A DNA stretch of 64,000 nt from a virus (IMGVR_UViG_3300027749_005140:1-64000); one strand, 5' to 3'; positions 17,972 through 63,351 are shown, counted from the stretch's first letter. The notes: a model not told the origin generated them from the letters alone. A program made the numbers and translations.

Positions 17972-19807
17972 ATGATAGATAAAATAGTAGCAAAATTAGA
18001 AGAAGCAAATGAAGCTTACAGAACTGGTAATGCAATCATCTCCGATAAAGATTATGATGAGATGGTCGATTTACTGTTTTCATATGACCCAGAGAATGAA
18101 TTTTTCTCAAAAGTAGGTATTGAAATTCTTGATGAAACAAGAAAGTCAAAATTACCTATTGATATGGCATCTATGAATAAAATTAAAACCATTGAAGACA
18201 TACATACATGGTTAAGATTAAAAGGTATCAATCCGAATACCGAAATTGTATGTACTCCAAAATATGACGGACTTTCTTTATGTCATGACGAAATCAATAC
18301 AAACACCTGGACTAGAGGTGATGGTGAATTCGGCCAGAAATCCGATGAACACTACAAACTAATACAAAATCACTTATCTTTAAAAGGTGATGTATTTACA
18401 TATACTTATGGTGAAGTTATCATGCCTAAACAAGTTTTCTTAGACAAATACTCATTAGAGTTCGCAAATCCAAGAAATTTAGTTGCCGGTTTACTTAACT
18501 CAAAAGAAGTAACAGAACCATTAAAAGACTTACAATTCATTAAATACGGTGCAATACCAAATGAAGGATTTAACTTTAAAAACAAGTCAGACATTTTAGA
18601 TATGTTAAACTCTGGCCAAGAAGTTAAAGTAAATTATCATTTATTTATTGCGAAAGATATTACAGAAGACTTATTAGTAGAGCTATTCAAAAGATGGTCT
18701 ACCGACTATGAAATCGATGGTATTATTCTAGAAGTAAATGATCTTAAACTACAAGCAAGTTTAGGTCGTGAGACTTCATCTAACAATCCTTGTTATGCAA
18801 GAGCATTTAAACACGATAGTTTTGAACAAAAAGCAGAAGCGACAGTATTAGGTATTTCTTGGAATATCTCTAAACACGGTCTCTTAAAACCTGTTTTACA
18901 TATTACTCCAATTAAATTAGATGGAGTTACTGTTTCTAACGTAACTGGTAACAATGCTAAATTCGTAAGAGATATGGGTTTAGGAATTGGTGCGAAAGTT
19001 GTAGTTAAAAGAAGTGGTATGGTTATTCCTCTAATTGTAGAAGTATTACAAACGGTTGACTTTGTTATGCCAGTTGTTGAAGGTACTGAAATTGATTGGA
19101 ATGAGGCAGGTATTGAGCTGATTACTTTAACTGAAACTGACGATCAAAAGATAAGACAAAATATTGCTTTCTTTGAAATCTTAGAAGCAGACAATGTGTC
19201 AGAAGGTATCATCACTCAATTATGGGATGCTGGTTATAAAACTATCGAAGACATTTTAAATGTTACTACTACACAATTAGAGAGTATTGACAGATTTGGT
19301 AAAAGAAAGGCTCAGATTGTTTATAACTCAATTCAAAAATCAGTCACTGATGTTCAGTTATCTAAACTACAACACGCTACAGGTTTGTTCAGAGGATTAG
19401 GTAGTAAGAAGTTAGCTTTATTAGAACACTTTACAACTAAACCTACAATCGATCAAGTTATGGAGATTGAAGGATTTGCTGAGATTTCTGCAAAAGTTTT
19501 TGTGGATAACTACGATAATTTCTTTACCTTTGTAGGAAATCTTCCTATAACGATTGCTAAAAAAATAGAATCAGTTAAAGTTGGTACAGATTTAGATGGT
19601 AAATCATTTGTATTCACTGGAGTTCGTAGAAAAGATTTAGAAGAAGTAATTGAATCACGTGGTGGTAAAGTTGCAGGTTCTGTATCTAAAACTACAACTT
19701 ACTTGGTAATGAAAGCAAAAGGTTCAGGTTCAAGTAAAGAAACAAAAGCGGTTTCACTTGGAGTAGTAATATTGACAGTAGAAGAATTAGAAAACTTATT
19801 ATCATAA
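17972..19807 (+). CDS. ligA: NAD+-dependent DNA ligase
   Basis: N-terminal Ia domain (YRTGNAIISDKDYDEM), adenylation KYDG lysine motif, C-terminal BRCT. Start moved to the Met after the promoter box. Confidence 0.85.
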   Translation: MIDKIVAKLEEANEAYRTGNAIISDKDYDEMVDLLFSYDPENEFFSKVGIEILDETRKSKLPIDMASMNKIKTIEDIHTWLRLKGINPNTEIVCTPKYDGLSLCHDEINTNTWTRGDGEFGQKSDEHYKLIQNHLSLKGDVFTYTYGEVIMPKQVFLDKYSLEFANPRNLVAGLLNSKEVTEPLKDLQFIKYGAIPNEGFNFKNKSDILDMLNSGQEVKVNYHLFIAKDITEDLLVELFKRWSTDYEIDGIILEVNDLKLQASLGRETSSNNPCYARAFKHDSFEQKAEATVLGISWNISKHGLLKPVLHITPIKLDGVTVSNVTGNNAKFVRDMGLGIGAKVVVKRSGMVIPLIVEVLQTVDFVMPVVEGTEIDWNEAGIELITLTETDDQKIRQNIAFFEILEADNVSEGIITQLWDAGYKTIEDILNVTTTQLESIDRFGKRKAQIVYNSIQKSVTDVQLSKLQHATGLFRGLGSKKLALLEHFTTKPTIDQVMEIEGFAEISAKVFVDNYDNFFTFVGNLPITIAKKIESVKVGTDLDGKSFVFTGVRRKDLEEVIESRGGKVAGSVSKTTTYLVMKAKGSGSSKETKAVSLGVVILTVEELENLLS

Positions 19808-24917: not shown

Positions 24918-26582
24918 AAAGTCTTTAACTATTCGTTCAAGATTATCTAATTTTTTAATATCCTTTTTGTAGTCTTCATCACTATATCTTAATCTACTCA
25001 TCTTCAGTTTTAATGACGAAGAATCTGCATCTAAACTTGTAAGAATATCTTTAACAGGTCTTGAAAGGAAAAAAATATCATCTTGTGCTAACTCATATAA
25101 TGATGATAATCTAACTTGCACCGATTTAAGATCTTCAATAGTTTCTATATCTTTAGTTTTAACTGAAATTGATAAGTTTAAACCAATTTTAACCACTTTA
25201 TCAATTATATCAGACATTCTTTCTGCATTTTGATTATGTGTATCTTTAACAATTTTAATACCTTTAGAGTAAGCAGTCGTTTGTTTCAAGCGTCTTTTCT
25301 TAATAGTTTTGAATAATTCATACGTTTTCTCAAAGTTATAAGAATTATCATTTTCTGACATAAGTCTATATAAATAAGAAATAAAGTCTGTTAATCTATC
25401 AATATAAGCACTACTATTATAAAGAGCGATTATAAAGTAATCTCCGATAATTGATGATGAGACAACTGAGTTAAGATTTTTAAATTCTTGTTTATCTTTT
25501 TCAATTCCCAATTTTGTAAATAAAGTAGTTAGATACCTTTCAACATTTTCTTTTCTAATATCTTCTGGTTTTTTTAAAGCTAATGCGTTATTTTTGAATG
25601 ATTTTCTCCTACTTATAATATCAGATGTGGTATCATCAACATTTTTAATTATTATATCATCGAGAAAAAGAACAATTGCAAAATTTGCTTCTTTACTTAC
25701 TTTATTAAAAATTGAAGTTTTTCTCTGATTCCATTCTTCCAAATTAGTTCCATCCAATGGTAAATTGAAATCCCAAACAGATTCTTCTGTCTTATTCATC
25801 TTCTCTAAATCATCATCTTTAAATCTTAATGGTTTTTCATCAAGTATTACTTTATGTAACATAAGATGATCATCTGATTCATTTTCTGGACTTCCTAATG
25901 ACCAAGCATATTGATAAGCAGCGTTACCTTCATAAAGGTTATATCTATCTGGTATTTGTATTTCATTTCTGGTTACAGAAGGATCTGAACCTTCATGATC
26001 ATTTTGATAAAAGTAATACTGAGGATCATCATCATCTCTTCTATTATCCGCGTATATTTCACCAAAAGTTAAATAAGTAGGATCTCCATTGAAATCTTCA
26101 CCACAAACCATTACTACTTTATCACCAGTTACTAAATCTCCTAATCTAGCTGGAGTAATAATACCACCTATTTTATATTCTCTAGCTAGGTAAGCTAAGT
26201 GAGATTGATCTAAACCTTCACCATTACTCATCATAGCACCATTATAAGAATTATACTTATTATAATCCATTGTTTTATTTCCAGTTCCAGTACTACATAA
26301 ATATCCGTTTTCTAATGAAAACCAATACTTAATACAATAAGTTCCAGATGGATTCATTGCTTCTTCACCTCTACCAACAGAAAGTGCTTTATTTACTGGT
26401 AGATATTGTATTTCTTTATCACTTAATGTACTTAAAGGAAAATCAAATTTATCTGAAAGTTTTTTTAATACTTTCAAAAACTCTCTTGTAGGATTATCAC
26501 TCTTTATCTTGTTATTTAAAAATGAAAGTATTGCACTAATCCTATTAGATTCAAAACCTTCGTATAATTTTAAGTACTTCAT
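24909..26582 (-). CDS. hypothetical protein (557 aa)
   Basis: Long minus-strand ORF. Confidence 0.35.
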   Translation of the reverse strand: MKYLKLYEGFESNRISAILSFLNNKIKSDNPTREFLKVLKKLSDKFDFPLSTLSDKEIQYLPVNKALSVGRGEEAMNPSGTYCIKYWFSLENGYLCSTGTGNKTMDYNKYNSYNGAMMSNGEGLDQSHLAYLAREYKIGGIITPARLGDLVTGDKVVMVCGEDFNGDPTYLTFGEIYADNRRDDDDPQYYFYQNDHEGSDPSVTRNEIQIPDRYNLYEGNAAYQYAWSLGSPENESDDHLMLHKVILDEKPLRFKDDDLEKMNKTEESVWDFNLPLDGTNLEEWNQRKTSIFNKVSKEANFAIVLFLDDIIIKNVDDTTSDIISRRKSFKNNALALKKPEDIRKENVERYLTTLFTKLGIEKDKQEFKNLNSVVSSSIIGDYFIIALYNSSAYIDRLTDFISYLYRLMSENDNSYNFEKTYELFKTIKKRRLKQTTAYSKGIKIVKDTHNQNAERMSDIIDKVVKIGLNLSISVKTKDIETIEDLKSVQVRLSSLYELAQDDIFFLSRPVKDILTSLDADSSSLKLKMSRLRYSDEDYKKDIKKLDNLERIVKDFLR

Positions 26583-29955: not shown

Positions 29956-30044
29956 GGTGTTTGTAACCGGTAAAGGCAGCCGACCAGATTGTGAATCTGG
30001 AATGAATTAATTTTCTAATGCGGGTTCGAATCCCGTCTCACACC
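29956..30044 (+). tRNA. tRNA-His-like (anticodon GTG) with G-1 and expanded variable region
   Basis: Extra 5' G, anticodon loop ttgtgaa, T-arm gcggg ttcgaat cccgt; 19-nt variable region and two acceptor mismatches. Possibly degenerate. Confidence 0.35.
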
Positions 30045-30062
30045 CTAAATTCTCCCTCTAAA

Positions 30063-53128: not shown

Positions 53129-54124
53129 ATGATAATCAAATCAGAAATAAATCCGAAAGACTTTGAGGTCGGTACAATCATTGGCCGTTTCCAAGTAAAC
53201 AAACTACACGATGGTCACAGATCATTAATCAACTACGTATTAGATAACCATAAAAAAGTAATCATACTTTTAGGTGTATCAAGAGTTCAAAATACTCGCA
53301 AAAATCCACTAGACTTTGCTTCTCGTAAAGCAATGATTCAAGCAGAGTTTCCTTCTGTTATGATACTACCAATTCAAGATCAAAGATATAACGAAAAATG
53401 GTCTCAACAAGTTGATTCTATTATCCCAATTCCTTTCGGTGAGAAAAAAACAGTAATCTACGGAAGTAGAGACTCTTTCATTCCTTACTACTCTGGTAAA
53501 TTTCCAGTTATCGAATTAGAAGAAAGTGTTACTTATAATGGTACAAACATCCGTGAAGAAGTTGCAAAAGAAACATTAGACTCTGACGACTTTAGAGCAG
53601 GTGTTATTTACTCTTCTTTTAATCATAGACCTACAACCTTCCCAACAGTTGATATTATTGCACACGATAATGAAGGTAATATCCTTTTAGGTAGAAAACC
53701 TAATGAGAAATTATTTAGATTTGTTGGTGGTTTTGTTGATACTTCAGATAGTTCATTTGAAGCAGCAGCTTTAAGAGAACTTAATGAAGAAACTGGTGGG
53801 AACTTAGTAGTAAATAAAGAATTAAAATATATTACTTCTCAAAAAGTAAATGATTGGAGATATAAAGGTGAAGACTCTGGTATTATGACTACATTATATT
53901 TGGCAACAAGACACTTTGGATTTGCTAAAGCTTCTGACGACATAGCCGAAGTAAAATGGATACCTGCTAATAAATTTAGTAACTATGATGGTATCAGAAC
54001 TGGAATTGTTCCGGAACACAGAGAGTTGATGAAAACATTTATTGATAAAGTTTATGATCAAAATCTTATGCCAATTGCAGAAAGATTAGAAGAAAGAACT
54101 AATGTAACTTACACCATTGAGTAA
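53129..54124 (+). CDS. nadM: bifunctional NMN adenylyltransferase / Nudix hydrolase (NadM-Nudix)
   Basis: N-terminal GRFQVNKLHDGH (nucleotidyltransferase H-x-G-H) plus C-terminal Nudix box GGFVDTSDSSFEAAALRELNEETG. Confidence 0.8.
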   Translation: MIIKSEINPKDFEVGTIIGRFQVNKLHDGHRSLINYVLDNHKKVIILLGVSRVQNTRKNPLDFASRKAMIQAEFPSVMILPIQDQRYNEKWSQQVDSIIPIPFGEKKTVIYGSRDSFIPYYSGKFPVIELEESVTYNGTNIREEVAKETLDSDDFRAGVIYSSFNHRPTTFPTVDIIAHDNEGNILLGRKPNEKLFRFVGGFVDTSDSSFEAAALRELNEETGGNLVVNKELKYITSQKVNDWRYKGEDSGIMTTLYLATRHFGFAKASDDIAEVKWIPANKFSNYDGIRTGIVPEHRELMKTFIDKVYDQNLMPIAERLEERTNVTYTIE

Positions 54125-54459
54125 TGAACAATCCAGTTATAAAAATAGCAAATGGTTTAATGATGGTTCAATCTTATCCATTTAATTGGATAAAAGATCA
54201 AGCCGCGGGTACCTCAGGTATTTCAACACCATGTTATTACATATTTTTAGGTGATATGTCTGGTGGTCCTACATGTGTTTATAGAGAGGAAAAAAACGAA
54301 TTATCTATTTCAGACTTAAAGTTTAAAGTCGAAAGTATCGAAGAAGCAGGTGAAATAGTTCTTAAACTTACACAAGGTATGGGAAAAAGTTTAGAAGGAA
54401 CTGTACATGAATCTGCTGTAGACATTAGAGATAAAAAGATAGAAAAAATATTAAATTAA
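54124..54459 (+). CDS. hypothetical protein
   Basis: ORF. Confidence 0.3.
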   Translation: MNNPVIKIANGLMMVQSYPFNWIKDQAAGTSGISTPCYYIFLGDMSGGPTCVYREEKNELSISDLKFKVESIEEAGEIVLKLTQGMGKSLEGTVHESAVDIRDKKIEKILN

Positions 54460-54464
54460 ATATT

Positions 54465-56057
54465 ATGAGTTTACAAAGACAAATTACTCGAAAATTAGAA
54501 AGAGTCATTGCTGATAAAGATTGGACTTCTTTAGAAGGTATTCAAAAATACCTAACAAAAATTATTACAAAACCAGACAATTTAATTCTTTGTTCTGATG
54601 CTTACAAATACTCACACCATAAATTCTATGGTGATGAAATGACTAAGATGATTTCTTATATGGAATCTCGTGGTGGTAAATTCTCAGAAACTTTATTCTA
54701 TGGTTTACAAATCATTATCAAACAATACTTAGAAGGTATCGCTATTACCAAAGAAGAAGTAGATGAAGCAAATGATTACTTAGCTTCTAAACTAGGTGTG
54801 TTCGGTAGAGAAGATGTATTTGATCGTTCTAAGTTTGATTATATCGTTGATAAATATGATGGTAAACTTCCTATCAGTATTAAAGCTGTACCAGAAGGAA
54901 CCGTTGTAAATACAAAAAATGTACTTTTCATTATTGAAAGTTTAGATGAAAAATGTGCTTGGTTGACAAACTTCTTAGAAAGTATCTTACTTCAAGTTTG
55001 GTATCCAATTACTGTTGCAACCCTTTCAAGAGAAGTTAGAAAAATTGTAACTAATTCATTTTTAGATTGTACTTCTTATGATGATAAAACAATCAATTTC
55101 TTAGTTGATTTTGTTTTAAATGATTTTGGTTTCAGAGGTGTATCATCTGTACAATCAGCTAAAATTGGTGGGTCCGCACATCTTGTCAACTTCTTAGGTT
55201 CAGACACTGTAATCGCTTCTAAATTGATTAGAGACGTATATAATACTGAACGAATCTATGGGTTATCAATTCCTGCAACCGAACACTCTATTATGACGCT
55301 TAAAGGTAAAGAAGGAGAGTTAGAACTAATGACGAGAGTGTTAAAAACATTCCCTACTGGATTAGTAGCGTGTGTATCTGATTCATATAACATCTTTAGA
55401 GCTTGTTCTCAATACTGGGGAACTGAGTTGAGAGATTTAGTTCTTTCAAGACCTGCAACACCTGGAAATCAATTAGTTATTAGACCTGACTCTGGCCACG
55501 TTTTAAGAACATTGAAAGAGATTTTTGATATATTATTTGACAAGTTTGGATATACGGTAAATGAAAAAGGTTACAAAGTACTTCCACCACAAGTTAGAGT
55601 AATTCAAGGTGACGGTGTCAACCTAGAATCAATTGGTGAAATCTATACAATGTTAAAATCAGAAGGTATTTCTCCAGAGAACTTAGCATTGGGTATGGGT
55701 GGTAAATTATTACAAGCGGATATAAACCGTGATACAAATAACTTTGCAACTAAAGCTTGTTTCGCAGTGGTTGATGGTCAAGAAAGAAATGTAGTTAAAT
55801 CTCCTACAGAAATGGATGCAGATGGTAACATTATGAAATCTTTCAAAAAATCTAAACAAGGTCGTTTGAAACTTGTTAAGAATGATGATGGTACTTACAG
55901 AACTGTTACTTCAATGGATGCAGACTTTGATACTGTTAAAGACGAGTTAGTTGAAGTATTTAGAATGGGAGAAATTACTAAAGAGTGGAACTTTGATGAG
56001 ATTAGACAAAGAGCTGCAGTTTTAGTAGAACAAGAAACAGAAGAATTGATAGCATAA
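54465..56057 (+). CDS. nadV: nicotinamide phosphoribosyltransferase
   Basis: LCSDAYKYSHHKFYG and GMGGKLLQ..NRDT motifs, ~530 aa. Confidence 0.85.
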   Translation: MSLQRQITRKLERVIADKDWTSLEGIQKYLTKIITKPDNLILCSDAYKYSHHKFYGDEMTKMISYMESRGGKFSETLFYGLQIIIKQYLEGIAITKEEVDEANDYLASKLGVFGREDVFDRSKFDYIVDKYDGKLPISIKAVPEGTVVNTKNVLFIIESLDEKCAWLTNFLESILLQVWYPITVATLSREVRKIVTNSFLDCTSYDDKTINFLVDFVLNDFGFRGVSSVQSAKIGGSAHLVNFLGSDTVIASKLIRDVYNTERIYGLSIPATEHSIMTLKGKEGELELMTRVLKTFPTGLVACVSDSYNIFRACSQYWGTELRDLVLSRPATPGNQLVIRPDSGHVLRTLKEIFDILFDKFGYTVNEKGYKVLPPQVRVIQGDGVNLESIGEIYTMLKSEGISPENLALGMGGKLLQADINRDTNNFATKACFAVVDGQERNVVKSPTEMDADGNIMKSFKKSKQGRLKLVKNDDGTYRTVTSMDADFDTVKDELVEVFRMGEITKEWNFDEIRQRAAVLVEQETEELIA

Positions 56058-56686
56058 TGGAAGAAAGAAAAACACTTGGGTTATCACCACTTATTATAGT
56101 TGAACCAGATCCTACTCTTATAGAATATTATAAGATAGCAAAGATTTTTGAAGTAAGTGAAATGCTTGTAAGTAAAACAGAAGATGGTGAGTGGTTATAC
56201 ATTCAAAGTAATTTAGATCAAAACATCTTTTTGTTGAAGAAACTAGAAGATATGGGATTGCTTCCAGATTCGGGAAAGATATGTGATTGTGGTATTGGAT
56301 TAGGAACTGCGATTTTTGATATTTATCTTCAATCTAAAAAACTTGAAAAGAACTATTCTTTTGTAGGGATAGAGAAACAATCTAAATATGTAAACTATCT
56401 CAATGAAAATCTTTTAGATTATTGGAATAATGATTTGCAAATAGTAGAAGGCGATTTAATGGAACAAAAGTATGATGATTATAATATCATATATTGTTAT
56501 ACACCTTTTAGAGATATAGAAAAACTCAAAACTTTCTATTTAAAAGTAATAGAAGAAATGCAACCAGGTTCTATTCTTATTGAGAATAAGAATTATGGAT
56601 TGGGAGAAAGAGAAATTCTTACTTCTTTGTCTGATAAAATATCTGCAATAGAGTTAGATGGAATAACAGTATTTAAGAAATTTTAA
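56057..56686 (+). CDS. class I SAM-dependent methyltransferase-like protein
   Basis: ICDCGIGLGTAIFDIY glycine-rich motif I. Confidence 0.35.
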   Translation: MEERKTLGLSPLIIVEPDPTLIEYYKIAKIFEVSEMLVSKTEDGEWLYIQSNLDQNIFLLKKLEDMGLLPDSGKICDCGIGLGTAIFDIYLQSKKLEKNYSFVGIEKQSKYVNYLNENLLDYWNNDLQIVEGDLMEQKYDDYNIIYCYTPFRDIEKLKTFYLKVIEEMQPGSILIENKNYGLGEREILTSLSDKISAIELDGITVFKKF

Positions 56687-56716
56687 AATAAAAAGAGTCT
56701 TTTTAAAAGACTCTTT
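56687..56716. terminator. bidirectional terminator
   Basis: aaaagagtcttt ttaa aaagactctttt between convergent genes. Confidence 0.65.
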
Positions 56717-57232
56717 TTATTTACCTTGTTCTATAACCTTCTTAACAGATTTAAAAACATTTTCCTTATCAATATCTGATAAATCTTTTTTAAAAATTAA
56801 ATACATTATATAATCATCATTACCTCTATTGGATAAGTTAAGATTTTTTTCCTTACAAAATTTAGTACAAAAAGAACTATAAAGTCTTTTCCTAGTATCA
56901 TTAGAATCTATTGCAGAAAATAATATAGAATTTGGATTCTTTTGTTCATATAGGTAATAGATATTAGTTTGTATTGTAGAAAGTACTCTAAATATAGATT
57001 TATTACTGTTATTTAACTCAAAACTCCAGTTATTACCATCCAAAAATGAAAATGAATAAGACCAGTTATTACCAAATTGTTTAAAACATTCTATTTTATA
57101 AGTAATATCATCTATTTCAAAATAACCAACTAAATAATTATCATCATCTATTCTCCAACTAACAACCACTGGAGAATCCAGTGATTCCTCTACAATATCT
57201 ACATAATCATTAAACTTTTTTATTAAATCCAT
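56717..57232 (-). CDS. hypothetical protein
   Basis: ORF. Confidence 0.3.
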   Translation of the reverse strand: MDLIKKFNDYVDIVEESLDSPVVVSWRIDDDNYLVGYFEIDDITYKIECFKQFGNNWSYSFSFLDGNNWSFELNNSNKSIFRVLSTIQTNIYYLYEQKNPNSILFSAIDSNDTRKRLYSSFCTKFCKEKNLNLSNRGNDDYIMYLIFKKDLSDIDKENVFKSVKKVIEQGK

Positions 57233-57261
57233 ATACTATATATATTAAAAAAGTAATACCT

Positions 57262-57594
57262 ATGAGTAAATGTAAAGTAGTACACTTTAGAAAAGAACCT
57301 TATGATATAATGATAGATAGGACAACCAAATGGGGTTGTCCTTTTTCTCATATAAAAGATAGAAAAACAAAAGCTAAGTATCATGTAAATTCAAGAAAAG
57401 AAGCTATTGATTCTTATAAAGAATGGATTACAAAAGGTGAAGGTCAACACTTATTGAATGATCTTCACGAGTTAAAAGGTAAAACATTGGGTTGTTGGTG
57501 TAAAGATGAAAATGGTAAAGGAAAATCTTGCCACGGTGACGTTCTAGTAGAACTGGTGAATGATGTGTTTAGAACAGATGGGTTTACTATTTAG
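57262..57594 (+). CDS. DUF4326-like small protein (conserved W-G-x-P-F ... CWC ... CHGD)
   Basis: YDIMIDRTTKWGCPF ... GKTLGCWC ... SCHGDVL. Confidence 0.35.
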   Translation: MSKCKVVHFRKEPYDIMIDRTTKWGCPFSHIKDRKTKAKYHVNSRKEAIDSYKEWITKGEGQHLLNDLHELKGKTLGCWCKDENGKGKSCHGDVLVELVNDVFRTDGFTI

Positions 57595-58087
57595 GTAAAC
57601 CAACAACAAAACTAATGGATCTCAATTTTTTACCTTCAAGAGAGGAAGAATTATCAAGTAATTCTTTACTTTGAAATTTTATATTATGTCCAGTAGCAAA
57701 TTCTAAATTAAAACGTGATTTCTGTATTGAAGTAACAGTAGATCTAGGATCTATTTTTAAAAGGTTATAATTATCTATTAGATATTTTACAAATGGTATA
57801 AATCTATCTGATACTTCTTCCCATAAAAATATTTTAAATGGGAAGCCTGGTCCTGCACTATTAGGTTTACCCAATTTTACTCTAAAATAATTTGTTTGAT
57901 AACCTAATTCAGGATAATTTTTTTTACCAATACATGGCCAAGAATCACTGGCCTCGTGTACTTGAATACTTATTTCGAAACCTTCATCCGTAAGATAAGA
58001 TAAATACATTTCACAGAAGTCTTGTAACTCCTCTTTTTGTAATTTAAGTTCTTCTCGGCTTTCGTTAAATTTTTTTAAATGTTTCAT
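57587..58087 (-). CDS. hypothetical protein, tandem paralog family B (1 of 3)
   Basis: MKHLKKFNES..EEL.DFCE.YL.YL.DEGF shared with two adjacent ORFs. Confidence 0.4.
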   Translation of the reverse strand: MKHLKKFNESREELKLQKEELQDFCEMYLSYLTDEGFEISIQVHEASDSWPCIGKKNYPELGYQTNYFRVKLGKPNSAGPGFPFKIFLWEEVSDRFIPFVKYLIDNYNLLKIDPRSTVTSIQKSRFNLEFATGHNIKFQSKELLDNSSSLEGKKLRSISFVVGLPK

Positions 58088-58091
58088 GTTA

Positions 58092-58583
58092 TTATTTAGT
58101 TTTAACCATAAAGTAAACCTCCCTTAATTTTACTCTATCAAGTGCATTATGTCTTTCTTCAAGAAGTCCTTTAGTTTGATACATAATACCATGCCATCTA
58201 TAATCTACAAATTTTATATCCGTTTTTCTATGGTAAGGTACAGTTGAACTTGGATCTACTTTTTCTAAGTTATAATTATCTTTTAGAAATTTAAGAAATG
58301 GTAAAAAATGATTGATTATATCTTGCCATGAAAAAATAGATTTATCTTGTTTTACTAAAGAAACTTGAAAAGGATTTCGTTTGATTACATTACCATTACT
58401 AGTAATTTGACCACCTCCATAAATTTTTAATTCAAATCCTTCGTCTAAAAGATAAGCTAGGTAGGTCTCACAGAAATCACGTAATTCTTCTCTCTGTAAA
58501 TTAAGTTCTTCTGGACTTAAAGCTTTAACTCCTGGTAGGAAATTTAGGACTGAACTCTCATTAAATCTTTTTAAATGTTTCAT
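58092..58583 (-). CDS. hypothetical protein, tandem paralog family B (2 of 3)
   Basis: MKHLKRFNES..EELRDFCETYLAYLLDEGF. Confidence 0.4.
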   Translation of the reverse strand: MKHLKRFNESSVLNFLPGVKALSPEELNLQREELRDFCETYLAYLLDEGFELKIYGGGQITSNGNVIKRNPFQVSLVKQDKSIFSWQDIINHFLPFLKFLKDNYNLEKVDPSSTVPYHRKTDIKFVDYRWHGIMYQTKGLLEERHNALDRVKLREVYFMVKTK

Positions 58584-58975
58584 AAACTATATTCTTCTAT
58601 TTTAAATGTTATCCTAGAAAGATCCCAATATACATTTATATCATCTAATTTATAATATGGAAAGCTTATTAAATCCATCGAATTTGATGAAGTGAAATTT
58701 ATGTAATCACTAGAAAGTTTATAGGTATTTTTTATTCTTTGTATAAATGGTATATAATGATCTTTTATATCATCCCACTTAAAATAAGAAGTATGAACAC
58801 CGTGTTGATTTGTAGTTAAACTTTTTCTAAGTGTAATATTATAGTACGCACCATTATGTGAGTGTACATCAATAAAAAATCCTTCATCTATTAGATAAGC
58901 TAGATTCATTTCACAATAATCTTTTATCTCTAATCTATCTTCTAAATTTTCATTAAACTTTCTTAAAAACTTCAT
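58580..58975 (-). CDS. hypothetical protein, tandem paralog family B (3 of 3)
   Basis: MKFLRKFNEN..DYCEMNLAYLIDEGF. Confidence 0.4.
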   Translation of the reverse strand: MKFLRKFNENLEDRLEIKDYCEMNLAYLIDEGFFIDVHSHNGAYYNITLRKSLTTNQHGVHTSYFKWDDIKDHYIPFIQRIKNTYKLSSDYINFTSSNSMDLISFPYYKLDDINVYWDLSRITFKIEEYSL

Positions 58976-59031
58976 AATCTATATATAAAAACATTTGACT
59001 AATAAAATCATATAATAAGAAAAAACTTTTT

Positions 59032-59685
59032 ATGGAATTATTTCACTTCGATATAGAAACTGCCGGCCAATATAGAAACTTTACAGAATTTGAAAAAAAT
59101 GATGAACGTGGTTCAGACCTCTTTAGAGGTAAGTTCCGAAAAATGGGTTGGGATTCTAAATATGAAAATGTTGATGAAGCTTACGCAGATAATTGTGGTA
59201 TTGTACCAACTTATGGTAGAATCGTTTGTATTTCATTTGGCTATTTAGATAATGGTCAAGAAAGAATTTCAAGTTTTTATGGTGAAGATGAAAGAGACAT
59301 CGTAGAAAAATTTAACAATTTACTTAAAAAGATTGAGAAGAAAGACTTTAATCTATCTGGATTCAGAATAGCTTACTTTGACATTCCCTGGGTAGCTCAT
59401 AAGTTAGCTAAGTATGGTATTAAACCAGCTGATATAATTACGACTTATAATAAGAAACCTTGGGAGATGAGAATTACTGATATGTCTGATGATTGGAAGT
59501 CAAAATTCGCTTGGGCATTCTCATTTGATGAGATGTGTTATGAGTTGGGTATTGAATCTCCAAAGGATAATATGAATGGTGGAGACGTACATGATGCTTA
59601 CTGGGAAGGTAGAGTTGAAGAAGTAAAAACCTACTGTGAAAAGGATGTAAAAGCCTCTATTAGAGTATCTCAGGTTATTTATTAA
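59032..59685 (+). CDS. DEDDy-type 3'-5' exonuclease (DnaQ/RNase D-like)
   Basis: Exo I FDIETAG, Exo II GFRIAYFDIPWV, Exo III YCEKDVKAS. Confidence 0.5.
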   Translation: MELFHFDIETAGQYRNFTEFEKNDERGSDLFRGKFRKMGWDSKYENVDEAYADNCGIVPTYGRIVCISFGYLDNGQERISSFYGEDERDIVEKFNNLLKKIEKKDFNLSGFRIAYFDIPWVAHKLAKYGIKPADIITTYNKKPWEMRITDMSDDWKSKFAWAFSFDEMCYELGIESPKDNMNGGDVHDAYWEGRVEEVKTYCEKDVKASIRVSQVIY

Positions 59686-59720
59686 AAAACTTCAAAAAGA
59701 GCGTTTTTCGATATATTTTT

Positions 59721-60068
59721 ATGATATATAGTTTTATGGAAAACCTTACTATCACGTACATCAAGACACATGGACAAACTTTGGAAATGTGGTCTGCAAC
59801 CGATACAAAAATAAACCTTTCGGTGGGTCATATTTGTATGAATGTAGAGAAAGATAACAGGATAAAATTCCTAGATGCTTGGGTACACGATGATTATCGT
59901 AGAAGAGGAATATATCGAAAACTATGGGAAACTAGATGGGAATATGTAAATAAAGAGTATAAAGGATATACAATATATGCTTGGTGTAAAGAAACATCAT
60001 TACCATTACTTTTAGAGAAGGAATTCACTCCAGGTGAAGTAGTTACTTATGTTGAGAAAAAGATTTAA
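59721..60068 (+). CDS. GNAT-family N-acetyltransferase
   Basis: HDDYRRRGIYRKLWE resembles GNAT motif A. Confidence 0.4.
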   Translation: MIYSFMENLTITYIKTHGQTLEMWSATDTKINLSVGHICMNVEKDNRIKFLDAWVHDDYRRRGIYRKLWETRWEYVNKEYKGYTIYAWCKETSLPLLLEKEFTPGEVVTYVEKKI

Positions 60069-60097
60069 ACTTTTTTAAAAAGTATAATATAAGTTGC

Positions 60098-60283
60098 ATG
60101 ATGAGACCCTTAAAATCAGTAGCCAAGTACTACTCAAAAGGATTTTTTTTAGCATATGGTTTATTAGCAATAATAAATCTACCAGAGTTTAACTTCTCTA
60201 CATTACTTGAACAATCACTTATGTTTGGCATAGGTATGGCACTTCTAATACACGGATTTGAAGACTTCTATAAAACAAAATAA
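60098..60283 (+). CDS. small membrane protein
   Basis: 61 aa with a hydrophobic helix. Confidence 0.3.
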   Translation: MMRPLKSVAKYYSKGFFLAYGLLAIINLPEFNFSTLLEQSLMFGIGMALLIHGFEDFYKTK

Positions 60284-60286
60284 ATT

Positions 60287-60463
60287 ATGGCAAATAAAGA
60301 CAGAAACTTTATAATTAGAATATCAGAAAAATTATTGGAAGAGTTTCAAGAGTTTTGTGATGATAATTCAATGAATGCTTCTAAAAGAATTAGAAAGTAT
60401 ATTGAGAACGATGTTGATGCGTGGAAGAAAAGAAAATTACAACAACAAAATAATCAAAAATAA
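60287..60463 (+). CDS. ribbon-helix-helix (CopG/Arc-like) small DNA-binding protein (58 aa)
   Basis: NFIIRISEKLLEEFQEFCDDNSMNASKRIRKYIE fits the RHH beta-strand + two-helix pattern; stop overlaps the next ATG (TAATG); not in the ORF track. Confidence 0.35.
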   Translation: MANKDRNFIIRISEKLLEEFQEFCDDNSMNASKRIRKYIENDVDAWKKRKLQQQNNQK

Positions 60464-61194
60464 TGGGTAATATACTTAAATTTATACTTGAATACCAAGA
60501 CTATATAGAAAATATAGAAAACTCCGATAAAGATGATTATATTTTTAATGAGATATTAAAAAGAAGCTATAATAGCAGATTAAAAATATCGGAAGGTCTC
60601 ATTAAAACACATCCCGTAAAAAAATCTGAAGATATTCTAAAAAGAAGATTTCCTGAACTAAATATAGAAATAGACGAAGATGATGAAATTTATATCTACA
60701 ATCTTAATGATAAAATAAGTAAATATCTACCCATAATAACCAACCTTGGATATTTTATATCACAAGTTACAATAGATGGTGATAATTGGCAACATAATGG
60801 TATAAATGATAATTTGTATACAAAAGGTATTTGTATAGAAGCAAAATATGATTATGAAGTAGAAATACCAAGTACTCTTTATCATGCATCACCAATTAAA
60901 TTAAAAAATAAAATATTAAAAAATGGCCTATCACCAAGATCTGGAAATAAAATAGCTAAACATCCAGAAAGAATATATTTAACCGATAATATCAATATCG
61001 CAATACAATTTGGAAAATATCTTAAAAATGAAGAAAATAATGAATGGTATAAAAATGGATTTTGTATCTATTCAATAGACGGTAAAGGTATATCAAACCT
61101 GTATTCAGATGTTAATCTTAGACAAGGTGGTTTTTATACTATGAACTATATAAAACCAGAAAACATAAAACTTATCTGGGATAATAGAAATTAG
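60463..61194 (+). CDS. putative ADP-ribosyltransferase-fold / Tpt1(KptA)-like protein
   Basis: LYHASPIKLKNKILKNGLSPRSGNKIAKHPERIYL resembles the Tpt1/H-Y-E ART core (L-Y-H-G-T...I...GL.P..R.HVHL). Confidence 0.25.
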   Translation: MGNILKFILEYQDYIENIENSDKDDYIFNEILKRSYNSRLKISEGLIKTHPVKKSEDILKRRFPELNIEIDEDDEIYIYNLNDKISKYLPIITNLGYFISQVTIDGDNWQHNGINDNLYTKGICIEAKYDYEVEIPSTLYHASPIKLKNKILKNGLSPRSGNKIAKHPERIYLTDNINIAIQFGKYLKNEENNEWYKNGFCIYSIDGKGISNLYSDVNLRQGGFYTMNYIKPENIKLIWDNRN

Positions 61195-61492: not shown

Positions 61493-61565
61493 GGCTCTAT
61501 GATGTAATGGATTAGCATATAAATCTTCTAAATTTATCGTATAGGTTCGAATCCTATTAGAGTCA
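61493..61565 (+). tRNA. tRNA-Arg (anticodon TCT)
   Basis: Acceptor ggctcta/tagagtc, D-stem atgt/gcat, stem taaat/attta, loop cttctaa, T-arm atagg ttcgaat cctat. Confidence 0.6.
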
Positions 61566-61571
61566 CAAAAA

Positions 61572-61645
61572 GTCTGGGTGGTGAAACTGGAAAACACAAC
61601 AAGTTTAAGCCTTGTAAGCTGCGGGTTCGACTCCCGTCCCAGATA
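61572..61645 (+). tRNA. tRNA-Leu-like (anticodon TAA) with class-I architecture (short variable loop)
   Basis: Acceptor gtctggg/cccagat, stem acaag/cttgt, loop tttaagc, T-arm gcggg ttcgact cccgt. Confidence 0.45.
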
Positions 61646-61651
61646 CAAATT

Positions 61652-61733
61652 GCAGAGGTGATGTAATGTAACCATGCTGGTCTAAGAAGCCAGTGTCCGA
61701 AAGGACGTGCGGGTTCGAGTCCCGCTCTCGGTA
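61652..61733 (+). tRNA. tRNA-Leu (anticodon AAG by hand fold), class II
   Basis: Acceptor gcagagg/tctcggt (one mismatch), stem ctggt/gccag, loop ctaagaa, variable arm gtcc gaaa ggac. Confidence 0.45.
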
Positions 61734-61735
61734 CA

Positions 61736-62002
61736 ATGAAAGAAATAGATTATATACAGTACACATCATATACATTATTATCAAGTGGTAATGTATTTAA
61801 GGTAAATTCAGTTATGCCTTTACAAAGTTTAGACAAACACTTGAATGAAAGTACAAACTTAATTATGTTTGTAGTTCATAATATAAAGTGTAATGATAAA
61901 GAAGTAATGGTTTATAATAGAGATCTATTTAGATTTACATATGGATCAAAAGAATGTCCTGAAATGATTATGAAAATGAAACATTCACATATATTAGAAT
62001 AA
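61736..62002 (+). CDS. hypothetical protein embedded in tRNA array 3
   Basis: 88-aa ORF between tRNA genes. Confidence 0.3.
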   Translation: MKEIDYIQYTSYTLLSSGNVFKVNSVMPLQSLDKHLNESTNLIMFVVHNIKCNDKEVMVYNRDLFRFTYGSKECPEMIMKMKHSHILE

Positions 62003-62004
62003 TG

Positions 62005-62086
62005 TCGGAGTGATGAAATGGTAGACGTGCTAGCCTCAAAAGTTAGTGTCCAAGTGACGTGTGGGTTCGACTCCCACCTTCGATAC
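62005..62086 (+). tRNA. tRNA-Leu (anticodon CAA), class II
   Basis: Acceptor gtcggag/cttcgat, stem ctagc/gttag, loop ctcaaaa, variable arm gtcc aagt gac. Confidence 0.6.
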
Positions 62087-62095
62087 AAAAATATG

Positions 62096-62178
62096 CAGGT
62101 ATGGGGGAATGGTAGACCCGCTGGCCTTAGAAGTCAGTGCTGAAATATGCGTGTCGGTTCGAGTCCGACTACCTGTAC
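62096..62178 (+). tRNA. tRNA-Leu (anticodon TAG), class II
   Basis: Acceptor gcaggta/tacctgt, stem ctggc/gtcag, loop cttagaa. Confidence 0.6.
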
Positions 62179-62220
62179 AAAATAATACTAATAAAATTAG
62201 GTAGATTAAAAAACTAATAG

Positions 62221-62228
62221 TATATTTG
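62221..62228 (+). promoter_or_regulatory. -7 promoter box TAnnTTTG of leader/tRNA module 4
   Basis: tatatttg followed by perfect hairpin ctctgta ataa tacagag (62231-62248). Confidence 0.5.
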
Positions 62229-62314
62229 TACTCTGTAATAATACAGAGAGTGTTTTACACTACTATAAATAAAGATAAACAAAAAGGGACAATAAAAATT
62301 TAATATATAATATA

Positions 62315-62404
62315 ATGAAAACAAATACTGTAAATATTAATGTGATTACGATTACGAATTGTGTGAATAACACGACTTCGGGTAAGCGATTATGTATAGT
62401 ATAA
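62315..62404 (+). CDS. leader peptide 4 (29 aa), Asn/Thr/Val/Ile/Cys-rich
   Basis: MKTNTVNINVITITNCVNNTTSGKRLCIV; AAT/AAC, ACN, GTA/GTG, ATT, TGT codons match the downstream Asn, Thr, Val, Ile, Cys tRNAs. Confidence 0.45.
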   Translation: MKTNTVNINVITITNCVNNTTSGKRLCIV

Positions 62405-62430
62405 ACTCATATATTATATACAATTTATAA

Positions 62431-62466
62431 AGACCCGAACTCAAAAAGTTTGGGTCTTTTCTTTTA
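62431..62466 (+). terminator. rho-independent terminator/attenuator 4
   Basis: aagacccgaac tcaaaa agtttgggtctt + ttcttttat. Confidence 0.7.
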
Positions 62467-62471
62467 TATAT

Positions 62472-62542
62472 TCTTCTATAGTGAAATGGTATCACGTCTG
62501 ACTGTTAATCAGTTATTCCAGGTTCGAGCCCTGGTGGAAGAG
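62472..62542 (+). tRNA. tRNA-Asn (anticodon GTT)
   Basis: Acceptor tcttcta/tggaaga, D-stem gtga/tcac, loop ctgttaa, T-arm ccagg ttcgagc cctgg. Confidence 0.6.
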
Positions 62543-62551
62543 CAAAAAAAT

Positions 62552-62639
62552 TACTGGGTTGCCATAGCCAGGTCGAATGGTTCGGACTGTTAATCCGATG
62601 AGCATCGCTCCACCGTGGGTTCGAATCCCACCCCAGTAG
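62552..62639 (+). tRNA. tRNA-like, anticodon GTT, with class-II-length variable hairpin (atypical)
   Basis: Perfect acceptor tactggg/cccagta, stem tcgga/tccga, loop ctgttaa, variable hairpin gagc atc gctc, T-arm gtggg ttcgaat cccac. Confidence 0.35.
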
Positions 62640-62647
62640 CAATACAT

Positions 62648-62728
62648 TGGCACATACCAGCCCAACCTGATAAGTTGGAGAACTGTAGCGGTACGTTGAA
62701 AACGTGGGTTCGAATCCCTCTGTGCCAA
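62648..62728 (+). tRNA. tRNA-Ile-like (anticodon GAT) with atypical architecture
   Basis: Acceptor tggcaca/tgtgcca, anticodon arm ccaac ctgataa gttgg (loop identical to bacterial tRNA-Ile); D region too short and 26 nt between anticodon and T arms. Confidence 0.35.
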
Positions 62729-62735
62729 CAAAAAT

Positions 62736-62810
62736 AGTCCTATAGCTCAGTTGGTTCAGAGCGATTGTTTAACACACAATAGGTCGTCGGTTCGAATCCG
62801 TCTAGGACTA
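62736..62810 (+). tRNA. tRNA-Val (anticodon AAC by hand fold)
   Basis: Perfect acceptor agtccta/taggact, D-arm tagctcagttggttcagagc, stem attgt/acaat, loop ttaacac. Confidence 0.5.
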
Positions 62811-62847
62811 CTGAAAGTTGTTTTGTGAAACAAAACACTACAAAATC

Positions 62848-62919
62848 AGTTCCTTAGCTCAGCGGGAGAGCGGTTGTTTTACATGCAACAGGTCGTGGGT
62901 TCGATCCCCACAGGAACTA
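62848..62919 (+). tRNA. tRNA-Val (anticodon TAC)
   Basis: Perfect acceptor agttcct/aggaact, stem gttgt/gcaac, loop tttacat, T-arm gtggg ttcgatc cccac. Confidence 0.6.
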
Positions 62920-62924
62920 CAAAA

Positions 62925-62998
62925 ATACCTTGGTCGGTATATCAATTGGTTTAGATTATCACGCTGATACCGTGAAGGTTGCGAGTTCGAGTCTCGCA
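62925..62998 (+). other. degenerate tRNA-like element (T-arm only)
   Basis: gcgag ttcgagt ctcgc T-arm and cggtat/ataccg pairing, but no anticodon arm or acceptor 3' strand. Confidence 0.25.
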
Positions 62999-63007
62999 CA
63001 AAAATAT

Positions 63008-63095
63008 GGCATAGTGTCTGAGTGGTCGAAAGATGCGGTCTGCAAAACCGTAATGATTAAGTTCATCATCGTAGGTTCAAATCCTACCTATGCTT
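63008..63095 (+). tRNA. tRNA-Cys (anticodon GCA) with expanded variable hairpin
   Basis: Acceptor ggcatag/ctatgct, stem gcggt/accgt, loop ctgcaaa, variable atga ttaagt tcat, T-arm gtagg ttcaaat cctac. Confidence 0.5.
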
Positions 63096-63102
63096 CAATA
63101 AT

Positions 63103-63176
63103 GGCGCGGTGGCCGAGTGGCACGTAGGCGGTGGATTGCAAACTCACACACACTGGTTCGATCCCAGTTCGCGCCT
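63103..63176 (+). tRNA. tRNA-like, anticodon GCA (second Cys-like, irregular D-arm)
   Basis: Acceptor ggcgcgg/tcgcgcc, loop ttgcaaa, T-arm actgg ttcgatc ccagt. Confidence 0.4.
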
Positions 63177-63183
63177 CAAAAAT

Positions 63184-63256
63184 GCCGATATAGCTCAATA
63201 GGTAGAGTGCCAACTTGGTAGGTTGGAGGTTAAGGGTTCGATTCCCTTTATCGGAT
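63184..63256 (+). tRNA. tRNA-Thr (anticodon GGT)
   Basis: Acceptor gccgata/tatcgga (1:72 mismatch), stem ccaac/gttgg, loop ttggtag, T-arm aaggg ttcgatt ccctt. Confidence 0.55.
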
Positions 63257-63265
63257 CAATAAAAT

Positions 63266-63346
63266 GCTAGTGTGGCCCAGTGGCGACGGCACTTCCCTTG
63301 TAAGGAAGAAATAAAAACACCGCAGGTTCGAGTCCTGTCACTAGCT
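63266..63346 (+). tRNA. tRNA-Thr (anticodon TGT) with 13-nt A-rich variable region
   Basis: Perfect acceptor gctagtg/cactagc, stem cttcc/ggaag, loop cttgtaa, T-arm gcagg ttcgagt cctgt. Confidence 0.55.
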
Positions 63347-63351
63347 CAACA

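Follow-up and report, generated by a model that had tools for sequence, protein, structure and literature searches.

We analysed a window of 64,000 nucleotides from a virus (IMGVR_UViG_3300027749_005140:1-64000), meaning the whole stretch of DNA, with a focus on the region 53129-61194, which lies among the accessory genes of an uncultured huge phage with AT-rich DNA. All open reading frames described in an earlier note on this DNA were recovered in place, and its account of the region was supported in part. The region combines two separate units in a mosaic. The NadM-Nudix/NadV pair was known beforehand as a set of NAD+ rebuilding genes (NARP2); the uncharacterised element here is an enzyme with a Tpt1-like ADP-ribosyltransferase (ART) fold located a few kb from this pair, a 243-aa protein that we call ART243. 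The relevant features are:

17972..19807, plus strand: LigA, NAD+-dependent DNA ligase
53129..54124, plus strand: NadM-Nudix, bifunctional NMN adenylyltransferase / Nudix hydrolase (Nmnat of NARP2)
54124..54459, plus strand: 111-aa ORF of no known family between NadM and NadV, its start overlapping the NadM stop
54465..56057, plus strand: NadV / Nampt, nicotinamide phosphoribosyltransferase (NARP2)
56057..56686, plus strand: 209-aa class-I SAM-methyltransferase-like protein, its start overlapping the NadV stop
57262..57594, plus strand: DUF4326 protein (Pfam PF14216)
60098..60283, plus strand: 61-aa predicted membrane protein (hydrophobic sequence), forming a conserved left border with the next gene
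60287..60463, plus strand: 58-aa predicted ribbon-helix-helix (RHH; CopG/Arc-like) protein
60463..60837, plus strand: ART243 N-terminal domain (residues 1-125), family-specific α/β, β-α-β-β-α-β, ferredoxin-like
60838..61194, plus strand: ART243 C-terminal domain (residues 126-243), ADP-ribosyltransferase fold, homologue of the Tpt1/KptA NAD+ lobe
61493..63347, plus strand: tRNA array, 13 ARAGORN calls, the first being tRNA-Arg(TCT) and tRNA-Leu

The first unit is a cassette with the gene order NadM-Nudix, 111-aa ORF, NadV, methyltransferase-like gene, an inserted minus-strand gene and DUF4326. NadV is matched by Pfam NAMPT_N (4e-27) and NAPRTase (2e-42), by phrog_448 at 1e-136, and by NCBIfam NF006629 with 518 bits against a cut-off of 405. 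NadM-Nudix displays a Pfam NUDIX domain (1.4e-14), a weak CTP_transf_like (cytidylyltransferase-like) match and the GRFQ…HDGH motif of a HIGH-motif nucleotidyltransferase; it matches phrog_395 and phrog_1198 and, in the PDB, the NadM-Nudix structures 2qjt and 2qjo. Its top NCBIfam families are all named 'bifunctional NMN adenylyltransferase/Nudix hydrolase', with scores below the equivalog cut-offs. These matches bear out the identification of the two genes as a known phage NAD+ salvage pair, and a suspected DUF4326 resemblance at 57262..57594 likewise held (E 5.5e-21, 75.4 bits against a gathering cut-off of 25, model positions 2-82 of 82; phrog_464 at 3e-30). Pfam, PHROG, NCBIfam and PADLOC assign the 111-aa ORF to no family, and the 209-aa protein has weak matches only (PRMT5 0.005 and GidB 0.03 in Pfam, CbiT 2.6e-4 in NCBIfam, mad2 1e-6 in PADLOC).

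The order NadM-NadV-methyltransferase-DUF4326, with DUF4326 downstream of NadV, is common to the related loci L027-L030. The L027 copy of NadM-Nudix is 95% identical to ours, and the 111-aa ORF is kept there at the same position with 91% identity. The methyltransferase-like gene shows 96% identity to its L027/L029 counterparts, whose stop overlaps the start of DUF4326. The NadM-Nudix copy of L026 is 48% identical, and no 111-aa ORF separates NadM from NadV in that locus.

NadV/NadM and DUF4326 are known to occur in phages (PMC9503650), and NARP2 (Nampt + Nmnat) of Vibrio phage KVP40 has been found by experiment to overcome the NAD+-depleting defences Thoeris and DSR2 (bioRxiv 10.1101/2024.02.11.579819). 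Judged by domain content, NadM-Nudix and NadV are predicted to be the NARP2 NAD+ reconstitution pair: as in KVP40, a large phage encodes these two enzymes, with matching domain architectures, side by side on the same strand. The cassette differs from that of KVP40 in the conserved 111-aa ORF between the two genes, in the methyltransferase-like gene and DUF4326 downstream, and in a NadM-Nudix divergent enough to stay below the NCBIfam equivalog cut-offs. NadV would convert nicotinamide and PRPP to NMN, which NadM would adenylate to NAD+ along the NARP2 pathway; this NAD+ would also supply the phage's own NAD+-dependent DNA ligase. DUF4326 forms a clade within the rhodanese-phosphatase superfamily predicted to process phosphates on ADP-ribose derivatives (PMC9503650), and a plausible role for it here is that of an accessory phosphatase acting on products derived from ADP-ribose.

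ART243 matches no family of Pfam, PHROG, NCBIfam or PADLOC. Its AF2 model (pLDDT 85) predicts a two-domain enzyme whose C-terminal domain is homologous to the NAD+-binding ART lobe of Tpt1/KptA, its nearest relative: alignment over the whole lobe gives an hhalign probability of 96.3% (E 1.6e-9). Structural matches in BFVD are phage entries annotated as 'putative RNA 2'-phosphotransferase' and DarT, and all seven PDB sequence matches at E<=10 are DarT1 or Tpt1. The segment LYHAS…GL.P…HPERIYL is the most conserved of the large ART243 family and aligns to the β1-α1-β2 motif of Tpt1 and DarT. An ART/Tpt1 core had been suspected from this short segment, and both the predicted fold and the alignment support it.

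In an alignment of 59 family members, ART243 carries the triad H141 / Y172 / hydrophobic 224. H141 is found in 56 of the 59 members and Y172 in 54, while at position 224, which is never acidic, 57 members have F, Y, V, I or C. In the predicted model a split β-sheet ART fold comes with His on β1 and Tyr on β2, as in the H-Y-E clade; where β5 begins, the catalytic Glu/Asp/Gln is absent and position 224 is hydrophobic, as in Tpt1. Set against the His/His/hydrophobic triad of the Tpt1 NAD+ lobe, ART243 has Tyr instead of His at the second position. Also conserved are R170 (56/59), H167 (52/59), K163 (51/59), D216 (56/59) and N218 (54/59) and, in the N-terminal domain, E44-G45 and N94-x-G96-[YW]97.

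With Tpt1/KptA, then, ART243 shares the homologous NAD+ lobe, the motifs LYH[GA][TS]…I…GL and [VI][HY]L[ST], and the hydrophobic third position. Unlike Tpt1/KptA, it lacks the N-terminal winged-helix RNA lobe with its Arg-His (LRH) and Arg (KKR) residues, for which an unrelated ferredoxin-like N-terminal domain stands in, and it has a 7-residue insert carrying K163/H167/P168/R170 and a 4-residue insert after D216. Of the Tpt1 Arg-His-Arg-Arg tetrad, three residues are therefore missing. The fourth (R119 in the Runella enzyme, which precedes the VHLS His by four residues) is unaligned: it falls on G161, 31 of 59 members have K or R in that column, and R170 lies two residues before Y172, after the 7-residue insert. 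ART243 gives no match to Pfam PTS_2-RNA (PF01885) and none of the 59 members passes its gathering threshold, with sub-threshold matches in 16 of them (best E 0.0012). Given the missing lobe and tetrad residues, we rejected ART243 as a true Tpt1.

The conservation pattern suggests that ART243 would bind NAD+ and transfer ADP-ribose to a target picked by the N-terminal domain. The most likely acceptor, by analogy, is a phosphate or other strong nucleophile at the end of a nucleic acid, RNA or tRNA. A phosphate is proposed because ART243, like Tpt1, has a hydrophobic residue at the place of the catalytic Glu, and the proposal stays an analogy because the residues with which Tpt1 binds the 2'-phosphate are missing. 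The invariant K163/H167/R170 would provide the positive charge that Tpt1 draws from its Arg-His-Arg-Arg tetrad. We favour a joint reading, at a probability of roughly 0.6, of a NARP2 cassette and a separate variable slot that holds ART243 as a probable phosphate-acceptor ADP-ribosyltransferase, with the RHH protein as a regulator.

The alternative that survives best, though we regard it as rather unlikely, is that ART243 modifies host DNA bases or proteins in the manner of DarT or of Alt/Mod, with D216 as a displaced catalytic acid. D216-x-N218, invariant and located in the loop that precedes β5, could serve as a non-canonical acid and direct the enzyme to protein or base targets, as in DarT and HYD-type ARTs, and one family member has a weak Tox-ART-HYD1 match. 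DarT, the ssDNA thymidine ADP-ribosyltransferase of DarTG, shares the ART fold of the H-Y-E clade and an alignable β1-α1-β2 segment (LFHFT…GL…HPDAICLS in DarT, LYHAS…GL…HPERIYLT in ART243). DarT1 is the top PDB sequence match of a broad family profile (5e-5, with Tpt1 at 2e-3), and a profile of the C-terminal domain alone scores the two equally (0.013 and 0.015). No Pfam or PADLOC DarT match was found for ART243, and no neighbourhood listing contains a gene for a macrodomain such as that of the DarG antitoxin. Over 40% of jumbo phages carry genes for fast-evolving conflict ARTs (PMC9503650); like those ARTs (Alt/ModA/ModB, ART-PolyVal, AcrIF11), ART243 is phage-encoded, multi-copy and accessory, and a variable-slot location and paralogy suit conflict genes. 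It differs from Alt and Mod, which are of the R-S-E type, in ART clade and in its distinct N-terminal domain. Candidate host proteins for such an enzyme would be RNA polymerase, translation factors or, as with AcrIF11, defence proteins.

It is improbable that ART243 is a genuine RNA 2'-phosphotransferase, a Tpt1/KptA orthologue removing 2'-phosphates during repair or splicing of the adjacent phage tRNAs. Tpt1 is the best structural and profile match, the gene lies 300 nt from the tRNA array, phage KptA homologues serving tRNA repair have been described (PMC9503650), and the relative L026 has an RNA ligase gene 9 kb away. Against this reading, besides the non-aligning N-terminal half, the missing tetrad residues and the Pfam result, the long tRNAs of the adjacent array have long variable arms rather than introns, no RNA ligase, 2H or PNK gene is present among the scanned ORFs of the window, most ART243 homologues are not near tRNAs, and multi-copy paralogy is unexpected for a housekeeping repair enzyme.

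Sponge proteins for nucleotide signals are known from phages, and with its canonical catalytic Glu missing ART243 might instead be an inactive NAD+/ADP-ribose binder (a sensor or sponge) or a simple NADase. We give this little credence: a hydrophobic third position does not keep Tpt1 from being active, H141, Y172, R170, D216 and N218 are nearly invariant across members that are 26-65% identical, which suggests catalysis, and an NADase would counteract the adjacent NAD+ salvage genes.

The second unit is a hypervariable cargo slot ~3 kb past the cassette, bordered on the left by the 61-aa gene and the RHH gene and on the right by the tRNA array. L022 and L027-L030 keep the 61-aa gene immediately upstream of RHH (62-100% identity), and the same tRNA array start follows the slot in L022, L027, L030, L031 and L033. 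The genes after RHH differ across L027-L033: RHH orthologues 83-98% identical to ours precede unrelated genes of 1033, 76, 109 or 181 aa in these sister phages. In L027-29 the flanks are 85-98% identical and the cargo is the 1033-aa protein; L030-L033 carry other cargos. ART243 is thus the cargo of this strain, a swappable accessory gene.

The earlier description of the 58-aa product as RHH-like is supported, the fold being plausible rather than proven. PHROG Arc-like repressors match weakly (E 9e-4 to 0.07), with no Pfam RHH family at E<=1. Four of its 29 homologues, which are all 53-65 aa long and 56-98% identical, are annotated by JGI as CopG/Arc/MetJ regulators. The AF2 monomer model (pLDDT 86) has an extended N-terminus followed by helices 14-26 and 31-57, and nearly all of its top Foldseek neighbours are CopG, Arc, AmrZ, NikR and RHH antitoxins, at E values that reach only ~0.4 because the domain is tiny. 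The RHH stop does share one base with the ATG at 60463 (TAATG), but two of the unrelated cargo genes show the same overlap, so this coupling is not specific to the ART gene. The RHH gene itself is highly conserved, but not together with the ART gene, and the two are not co-inherited as an adjacent pair across homologues. The protein is most likely a transcription regulator of the region and not an antitoxin, and is probably a DNA-binding regulator rather than an ART-specific partner. The arrangement resembles accessory or anti-defence loci marked by a regulator, in which Aca-type HTH/RHH genes neighbour variable anti-defence genes: here too a small, highly conserved, predicted DNA-binding gene sits beside interchangeable cargo, but the regulator precedes the cargo instead of lying downstream of it.

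The ART243 family comprises 1,717 representatives and includes paralogues, tandem copies, split forms and double-ART fusions. A motif scan tuned to the close subfamily found no match in 185,579 cellular species genomes, so the family appears to be restricted to phages. Because of this apparent restriction, the swappable slot and the multi-copy, tandem, split and fused variants, we infer a role in host takeover or counter-defence rather than in housekeeping. Unrelated genes lie upstream of the ART homologue in 13 of 16 non-redundant loci. RHH-like segments occur upstream in three of the 16, including an in-frame fusion in L012/L013, and some functional tie between RHH domains and the family may exist.

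An RHH-antitoxin / ART-toxin module had been proposed, and we rejected it on the strength of the conserved RHH orthologues that precede different genes. That the RHH protein neutralises an NAD+-consuming ART toxin by binding, as in a type II toxin-antitoxin or abortive-infection-like system, is very improbable: the gene overlap, the antitoxin-like predicted fold, the existence of ART toxins with adjacent antitoxins (DarTG, whose DarT1 is a profile match) and the RHH-like segments fused or close upstream in L012/13 and L002 are outweighed by the unrelated genes that follow RHH or precede ART homologues, by an RHH homologue 2.3 kb downstream of the ART gene in L002, by the lack of a PADLOC match and of cellular or prophage copies in the motif scan, and by the atypical prospect of an antitoxin fused in frame to its own toxin (L012).

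Only L026 has NadM/NadV within 10 kb of its ART homologue, and only L024 has DUF4326 that close; in the remaining 13 non-redundant loci the ART homologue has neither nearby. A link of the ART gene to NAD+ salvage at the operon level is therefore not supported, and the association is lineage synteny only, shared with one or two closer relatives. In L001 the ART243 homologue has an ART-PolyVal gene 750 nt upstream of it. Outside the 53129-61194 region, the same phage encodes another NAD+-consuming enzyme, LigA (Pfam DNA_ligase_aden 1.8e-20, DNA_ligase_OB 6.8e-18, BRCT).

The window is AT-rich (25-38% GC per 2-kb block) and holds 29 tRNA genes together with genes for an NAD+-dependent DNA ligase, CoaE and DNA methyltransferases. 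Megablast of the 8-kb region found no match, and nothing near-identical, among 50,697 phage records, and the relatives of the window genes lie on 100-650 kb metagenomic contigs and IMG/VR viral contigs. The window is therefore a piece of a huge uncultured phage. A scan of 185,579 cellular genomes for the neighbouring exonuclease found none, and hence gave no clue to the host. The ORF positions reported in an earlier note on this DNA proved exact throughout. The features that matter here are the following:

17972-19807, LigA, an NAD+-dependent DNA ligase with a BRCT domain, a second NAD+ consumer of the phage
53129-54124, NadM-Nudix, with cytidylyltransferase-like and Nudix domains
54465-56057, NadV/Nampt, an unambiguous assignment
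57262-57594, DUF4326 protein
60098-60283, 61-aa predicted membrane protein
60287-60463 (+), 58-aa ribbon-helix-helix-like (RHH) protein
60463-61194 (+), 243-aa protein (ART243)
61493-63347, tRNA array

ART243 matches no Pfam, PHROG, NCBIfam or PADLOC model. It has 197 close homologues, and clustering at the 50% level leaves 1,717 representatives; family members are mostly 220-260 aa long and cover positions 40-242. The best of its ranked matches is the Tpt1/KptA chain 9ld3_A (12.3, with 101 residues aligned), followed by mouse Tpt1 (9.2), by pertussis-like, cholera-like and Rhs ART toxins (8-9) and by DarT (7.7), with PARPs, diphtheria toxin, Arr and RES ranked lower. All these matches fall in the C-terminal ~120 residues. 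The sequence profiles agree with this fold assignment independently of the ranked matches: a broad family profile recovers DarT1 (E 5e-5) and Tpt1 chains (E 2e-3) from the PDB, and all seven matches of a C-domain-only profile at E<=10 are DarT1 or Tpt1. Matches to PTS_2-RNA, below threshold, occur in 16 of 59 family members. Profile-profile alignment with hhalign, using only Tpt1 chain sequences from the PDB on the Tpt1 side, joins the family to Tpt1 with 96.3% probability (E 1.6e-9) over 94 columns, corresponding to the entire NAD+ lobe. The tentative ART/Tpt1-like call made from a short motif is thus right in both fold and nearest relative.

The hallmarks of Tpt1 are a two-lobed structure and an Arg-His-Arg-Arg tetrad; the winged-helix RNA lobe, at the N-terminus, supplies three of these four residues. 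ART243 is not a true Tpt1, and its N-domain is not the Tpt1 RNA lobe: with the profile of the full-length family, the alignment to Tpt1 is confined to residues 135-187. The fourth tetrad Arg is aligned to G161. The NAD+ lobe is common to both proteins, whereas ART243 has a different domain in place of the RNA-recognition lobe. A weak match of this N-domain to UPF0201 AF_1395 is not significant (E 0.35). The idea that the adjoining 88-89-nt tRNAs carry introns requiring a Tpt1 fails as well, their extra length being long variable arms.

Within the aligned lobe, H141 stands opposite the His of the Tpt1 motif LYHGT, Y172 opposite the His of VHLS, and residue 224 opposite the Val of NGVWL, the place that the catalytic Glu occupies in H-Y-E ARTs. 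Among 59 diverse members this residue is never acidic, and 57 have F, Y, V, I or C there. By analogy with Tpt1, this hydrophobic third triad position suggests an acceptor that would not need a general base, such as a phosphate. Alternatively, D216 could be a displaced catalytic acid. It belongs to the near-invariant D216-x-N218 in a 4-residue insert before β5; a 7-residue insert ahead of β2 carries four more such residues (K163, H167, P168 and R170), and E44-G45, N94-x-G96-[YW]97 and E126-x-K128-x-D130 in or adjoining the N-domain are near-invariant as well. Such conservation at pairwise identities of 26-65% argues for the family being a real enzyme.

A locus may carry two or three members of the family, also in tandem (loci L002, L008, L014 and L016 from relatives). 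In L018-L021 it is split, the N-domain and the ART domain being encoded by two adjacent ORFs (e.g. L019 5563-5892 and 5896-6369). Four proteins (P0146, P0192, P0175 and P0158) carry a fusion to a second, PARP/DarT-like ART domain, and one ART243-family domain lies inside a 1654-aa protein. Motif scans tuned to the close subfamily found no member in 185,579 cellular species genomes, and tblastn of ART243 against the 50,697 phage records recovered only three unannotated huge-phage records at ~33% identity. The window holds no paralogue. On the 566-kb contig of L001 the homologue lies between an ART-PolyVal/PARP-like gene and a TROVE (Ro60-like) plus VWA gene (coordinates listed: 6641-7246 and 8743-10188), a neighbourhood that joins a second ART and an RNA-quality-control protein. 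Fast-evolving conflict ARTs are carried by more than 40% of jumbo phages (PMC9503650). The copy number, the tandem, split and fused forms, the lack of cellular matches and the L001 setting fit this class. A phage-encoded tmRNA is found at L009 8406-8784, 1.7 kb downstream of an ART243 homologue, and the window ORF at 24129-24560 looks SmpB-like, judged from its translation alone.

The stop codon of the RHH gene shares one base with the ART243 start, an arrangement that had been read as an RHH-antitoxin/ART-toxin pair. The ribbon-helix-helix fold is plausible; the pairing does not hold up. RHH orthologues are highly conserved (all 53-65 aa), and sister phages keep the block exonuclease – GNAT-like – 61-aa membrane protein – RHH, with RHH 83-98% identical. 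The gene that follows encodes a 1033-aa protein in L027-29, a 76-aa protein in L030, a 109-aa protein in L031/33 and a 181-aa protein in L032; the overlap with the RHH stop is repeated for the 109-aa and 181-aa genes. No ART family member lies within ±6 kb of the RHH orthologues in L027-L033. In most of the 16 non-redundant ART-homologue loci an unrelated gene lies upstream (a helicase, sigma-factor or coiled-coil protein gene, or a paralogue), and the RHH–ART arrangement recurs only in the near-identical strain L022. These comparisons of gene order speak against a dedicated RHH–ART243 pair, and a tempting but wrong toxin–antitoxin annotation is thereby removed. Promoter and terminator counts around the two genes do not exceed those of shuffled sequence. 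An unrelated RHH-like segment lies 314 nt upstream of the ART homologue in L002, and at 5836-6720 of L012/L013 a 294-aa ORF fuses an RHH-like segment (VNLTINEDLCNDLDKYLEEVKLSRSEYIEYLIKKD) in-frame to an ART243 homologue, the sequence being identical in contigs from two different samples. A looser relation between RHH domains and the ART243 family is possible.

The tRNA array beyond this position has the same start in the sister phages, tRNA-Arg(TCT) followed by tRNA-Leu. Because these conserved flanks hold differing genes across sister phages, ART243 is the cargo of a hypervariable slot, with a conserved regulator-like gene on one side and the tRNA array on the other; the interval between the two is a cargo hotspot. 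In huge phages, such a regulator-flanked slot gives a practical way to locate further accessory or anti-defence genes. The 1033-aa ORF filling it at L027 6196-9297 (also in L028 and L029) has no Pfam domain, and the 181-aa cargo of L032 shows a faint match to class-II aminoacyl-tRNA synthetases (PF00152). Three 89-nt tRNAs of the window (62552-62640, 63008-63096 and 29957-30045) combine a class-II-style long variable arm with anticodons of class-I amino acids (Asn GTT, Cys GCA and His GTG) and contain no introns; the long tRNA-Asn(GTT) is kept in L027, L030, L031 and L033. SerRS or LeuRS might charge these tRNAs, which would then recode; alternatively, they may be no more than unusual phage tRNAs. 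Two further tRNA-model matches, at 62648-62728 and 62938-62997 (34.6 and 37 bits), exceed the Rfam gathering score and receive no ARAGORN call.

The NadM-Nudix and NadV genes had been identified as a known phage NAD+ salvage pair, which domain, family and PDB matches bear out. The top NCBIfam families for 53129-54124 are all of the bifunctional NMN adenylyltransferase/Nudix type, with scores below the equivalog cut-offs, and its PDB sequence relatives are only the NadM-Nudix structures 2qjt and 2qjo and an archaeal NMNAT. The pair constitutes the already known NAD+ rebuilding pathway NARP2, and is one more example in a huge uncultured phage. NadV and NadM were surveyed earlier in medium and jumbo phages (PMC9503650), and the NARP2 proteins of KVP40 were shown to rebuild NAD+ and to overcome Thoeris and DSR2 (bioRxiv 10.1101/2024.02.11.579819). 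The DUF4326-like protein is a full-length DUF4326 protein; this family was placed in the rhodanese-phosphatase superfamily and predicted to process phosphates on ADP-ribose derivatives (PMC9503650). Close relatives (L027-L030) keep the order NadM – 108 aa – NadV – (108 aa) – methyltransferase-like or DUF7487 – DUF4326, and their stops and starts overlap; within the lineage these genes therefore behave as one cassette. In the window, a conserved 111-aa ORF (54124-54459) lies between NadM and NadV, and a SAM-methyltransferase-like gene (56057-56686) is coupled to the NadV stop; in L027 the stop of the latter overlaps the DUF4326 start. Each of the two could be an accessory of the cassette that has so far gone unrecognised. 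PADLOC returned nothing meaningful for ART243, RHH, DUF4326 or the 111-aa protein.

LigA gives the phage a reason of its own for carrying NAD+ salvage, and an NAD+-using ART would obviously benefit from NARP2 as well, as would LigA. In the ±6-10 kb around the ART homologues, L026 alone has NadM/NadV and L024 alone has DUF4326; these two are closer relatives (60-63% identical to ART243 by tblastn), and the other ART homologues have neither in that range. The proximity is therefore a matter of lineage synteny in an accessory region and not of a conserved functional module. The earlier note is upheld for the NAD+ salvage genes, for DUF4326, for a plausible RHH fold and for the Tpt1-like ART fold, and set aside for the toxin–antitoxin pair and the NAD+-themed functional neighbourhood.

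The new part is ART243 only, an uncharacterised variant that joins a Tpt1-type NAD+ lobe to a new N-domain and is very widespread in huge phages. In the most far-reaching reading, to which we give a probability of only about 0.2, this very large, phage-restricted family (with single, tandem, split, double-ART and RHH-fused versions) would combine the Tpt1-type lobe with a new ferredoxin-like targeting domain and ADP-ribosylate the phosphate ends of RNA from host or phage, for instance capping or blocking 5'-, 2'- or 3'-phosphates of tRNA or mRNA, as a counter-defence or host-shutoff weapon, with the conserved RHH gene marking a swappable anti-defence slot beside the tRNA array. To our knowledge, Tpt1-type chemistry, the transfer of ADP-ribose to a phosphate, is rare among ARTs. 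If the reading is true, a phage family has turned this chemistry on a new target, which would extend the range of nucleic-acid ADP-ribosylation known from phage–host conflict. The family comprises at least 1,717 sequence clusters and has no functional assignment in Pfam or PHROG.

The accessory region also holds three tandem paralogous genes (131-166 aa; 57587-58975, minus strand), whose products all begin with MK[HF]L[KR][KR]FNE. A similar N-terminus (MKxLKxFxE or MIxKFxxFE) occurs on unrelated proteins of the same phage (sites listed alongside: 24909-26582, 7722-8132 and 56717-57232), on an 81-aa protein of L024 and on the ART-family fusions P0146 and P0162; it may serve these proteins as a common N-terminal signal for targeting or packaging. 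In related phages, TnpB/IS605 OrfB (Cas12f-like) genes are inserted in this same region (L023 777-1466 and L030 4227-5408).
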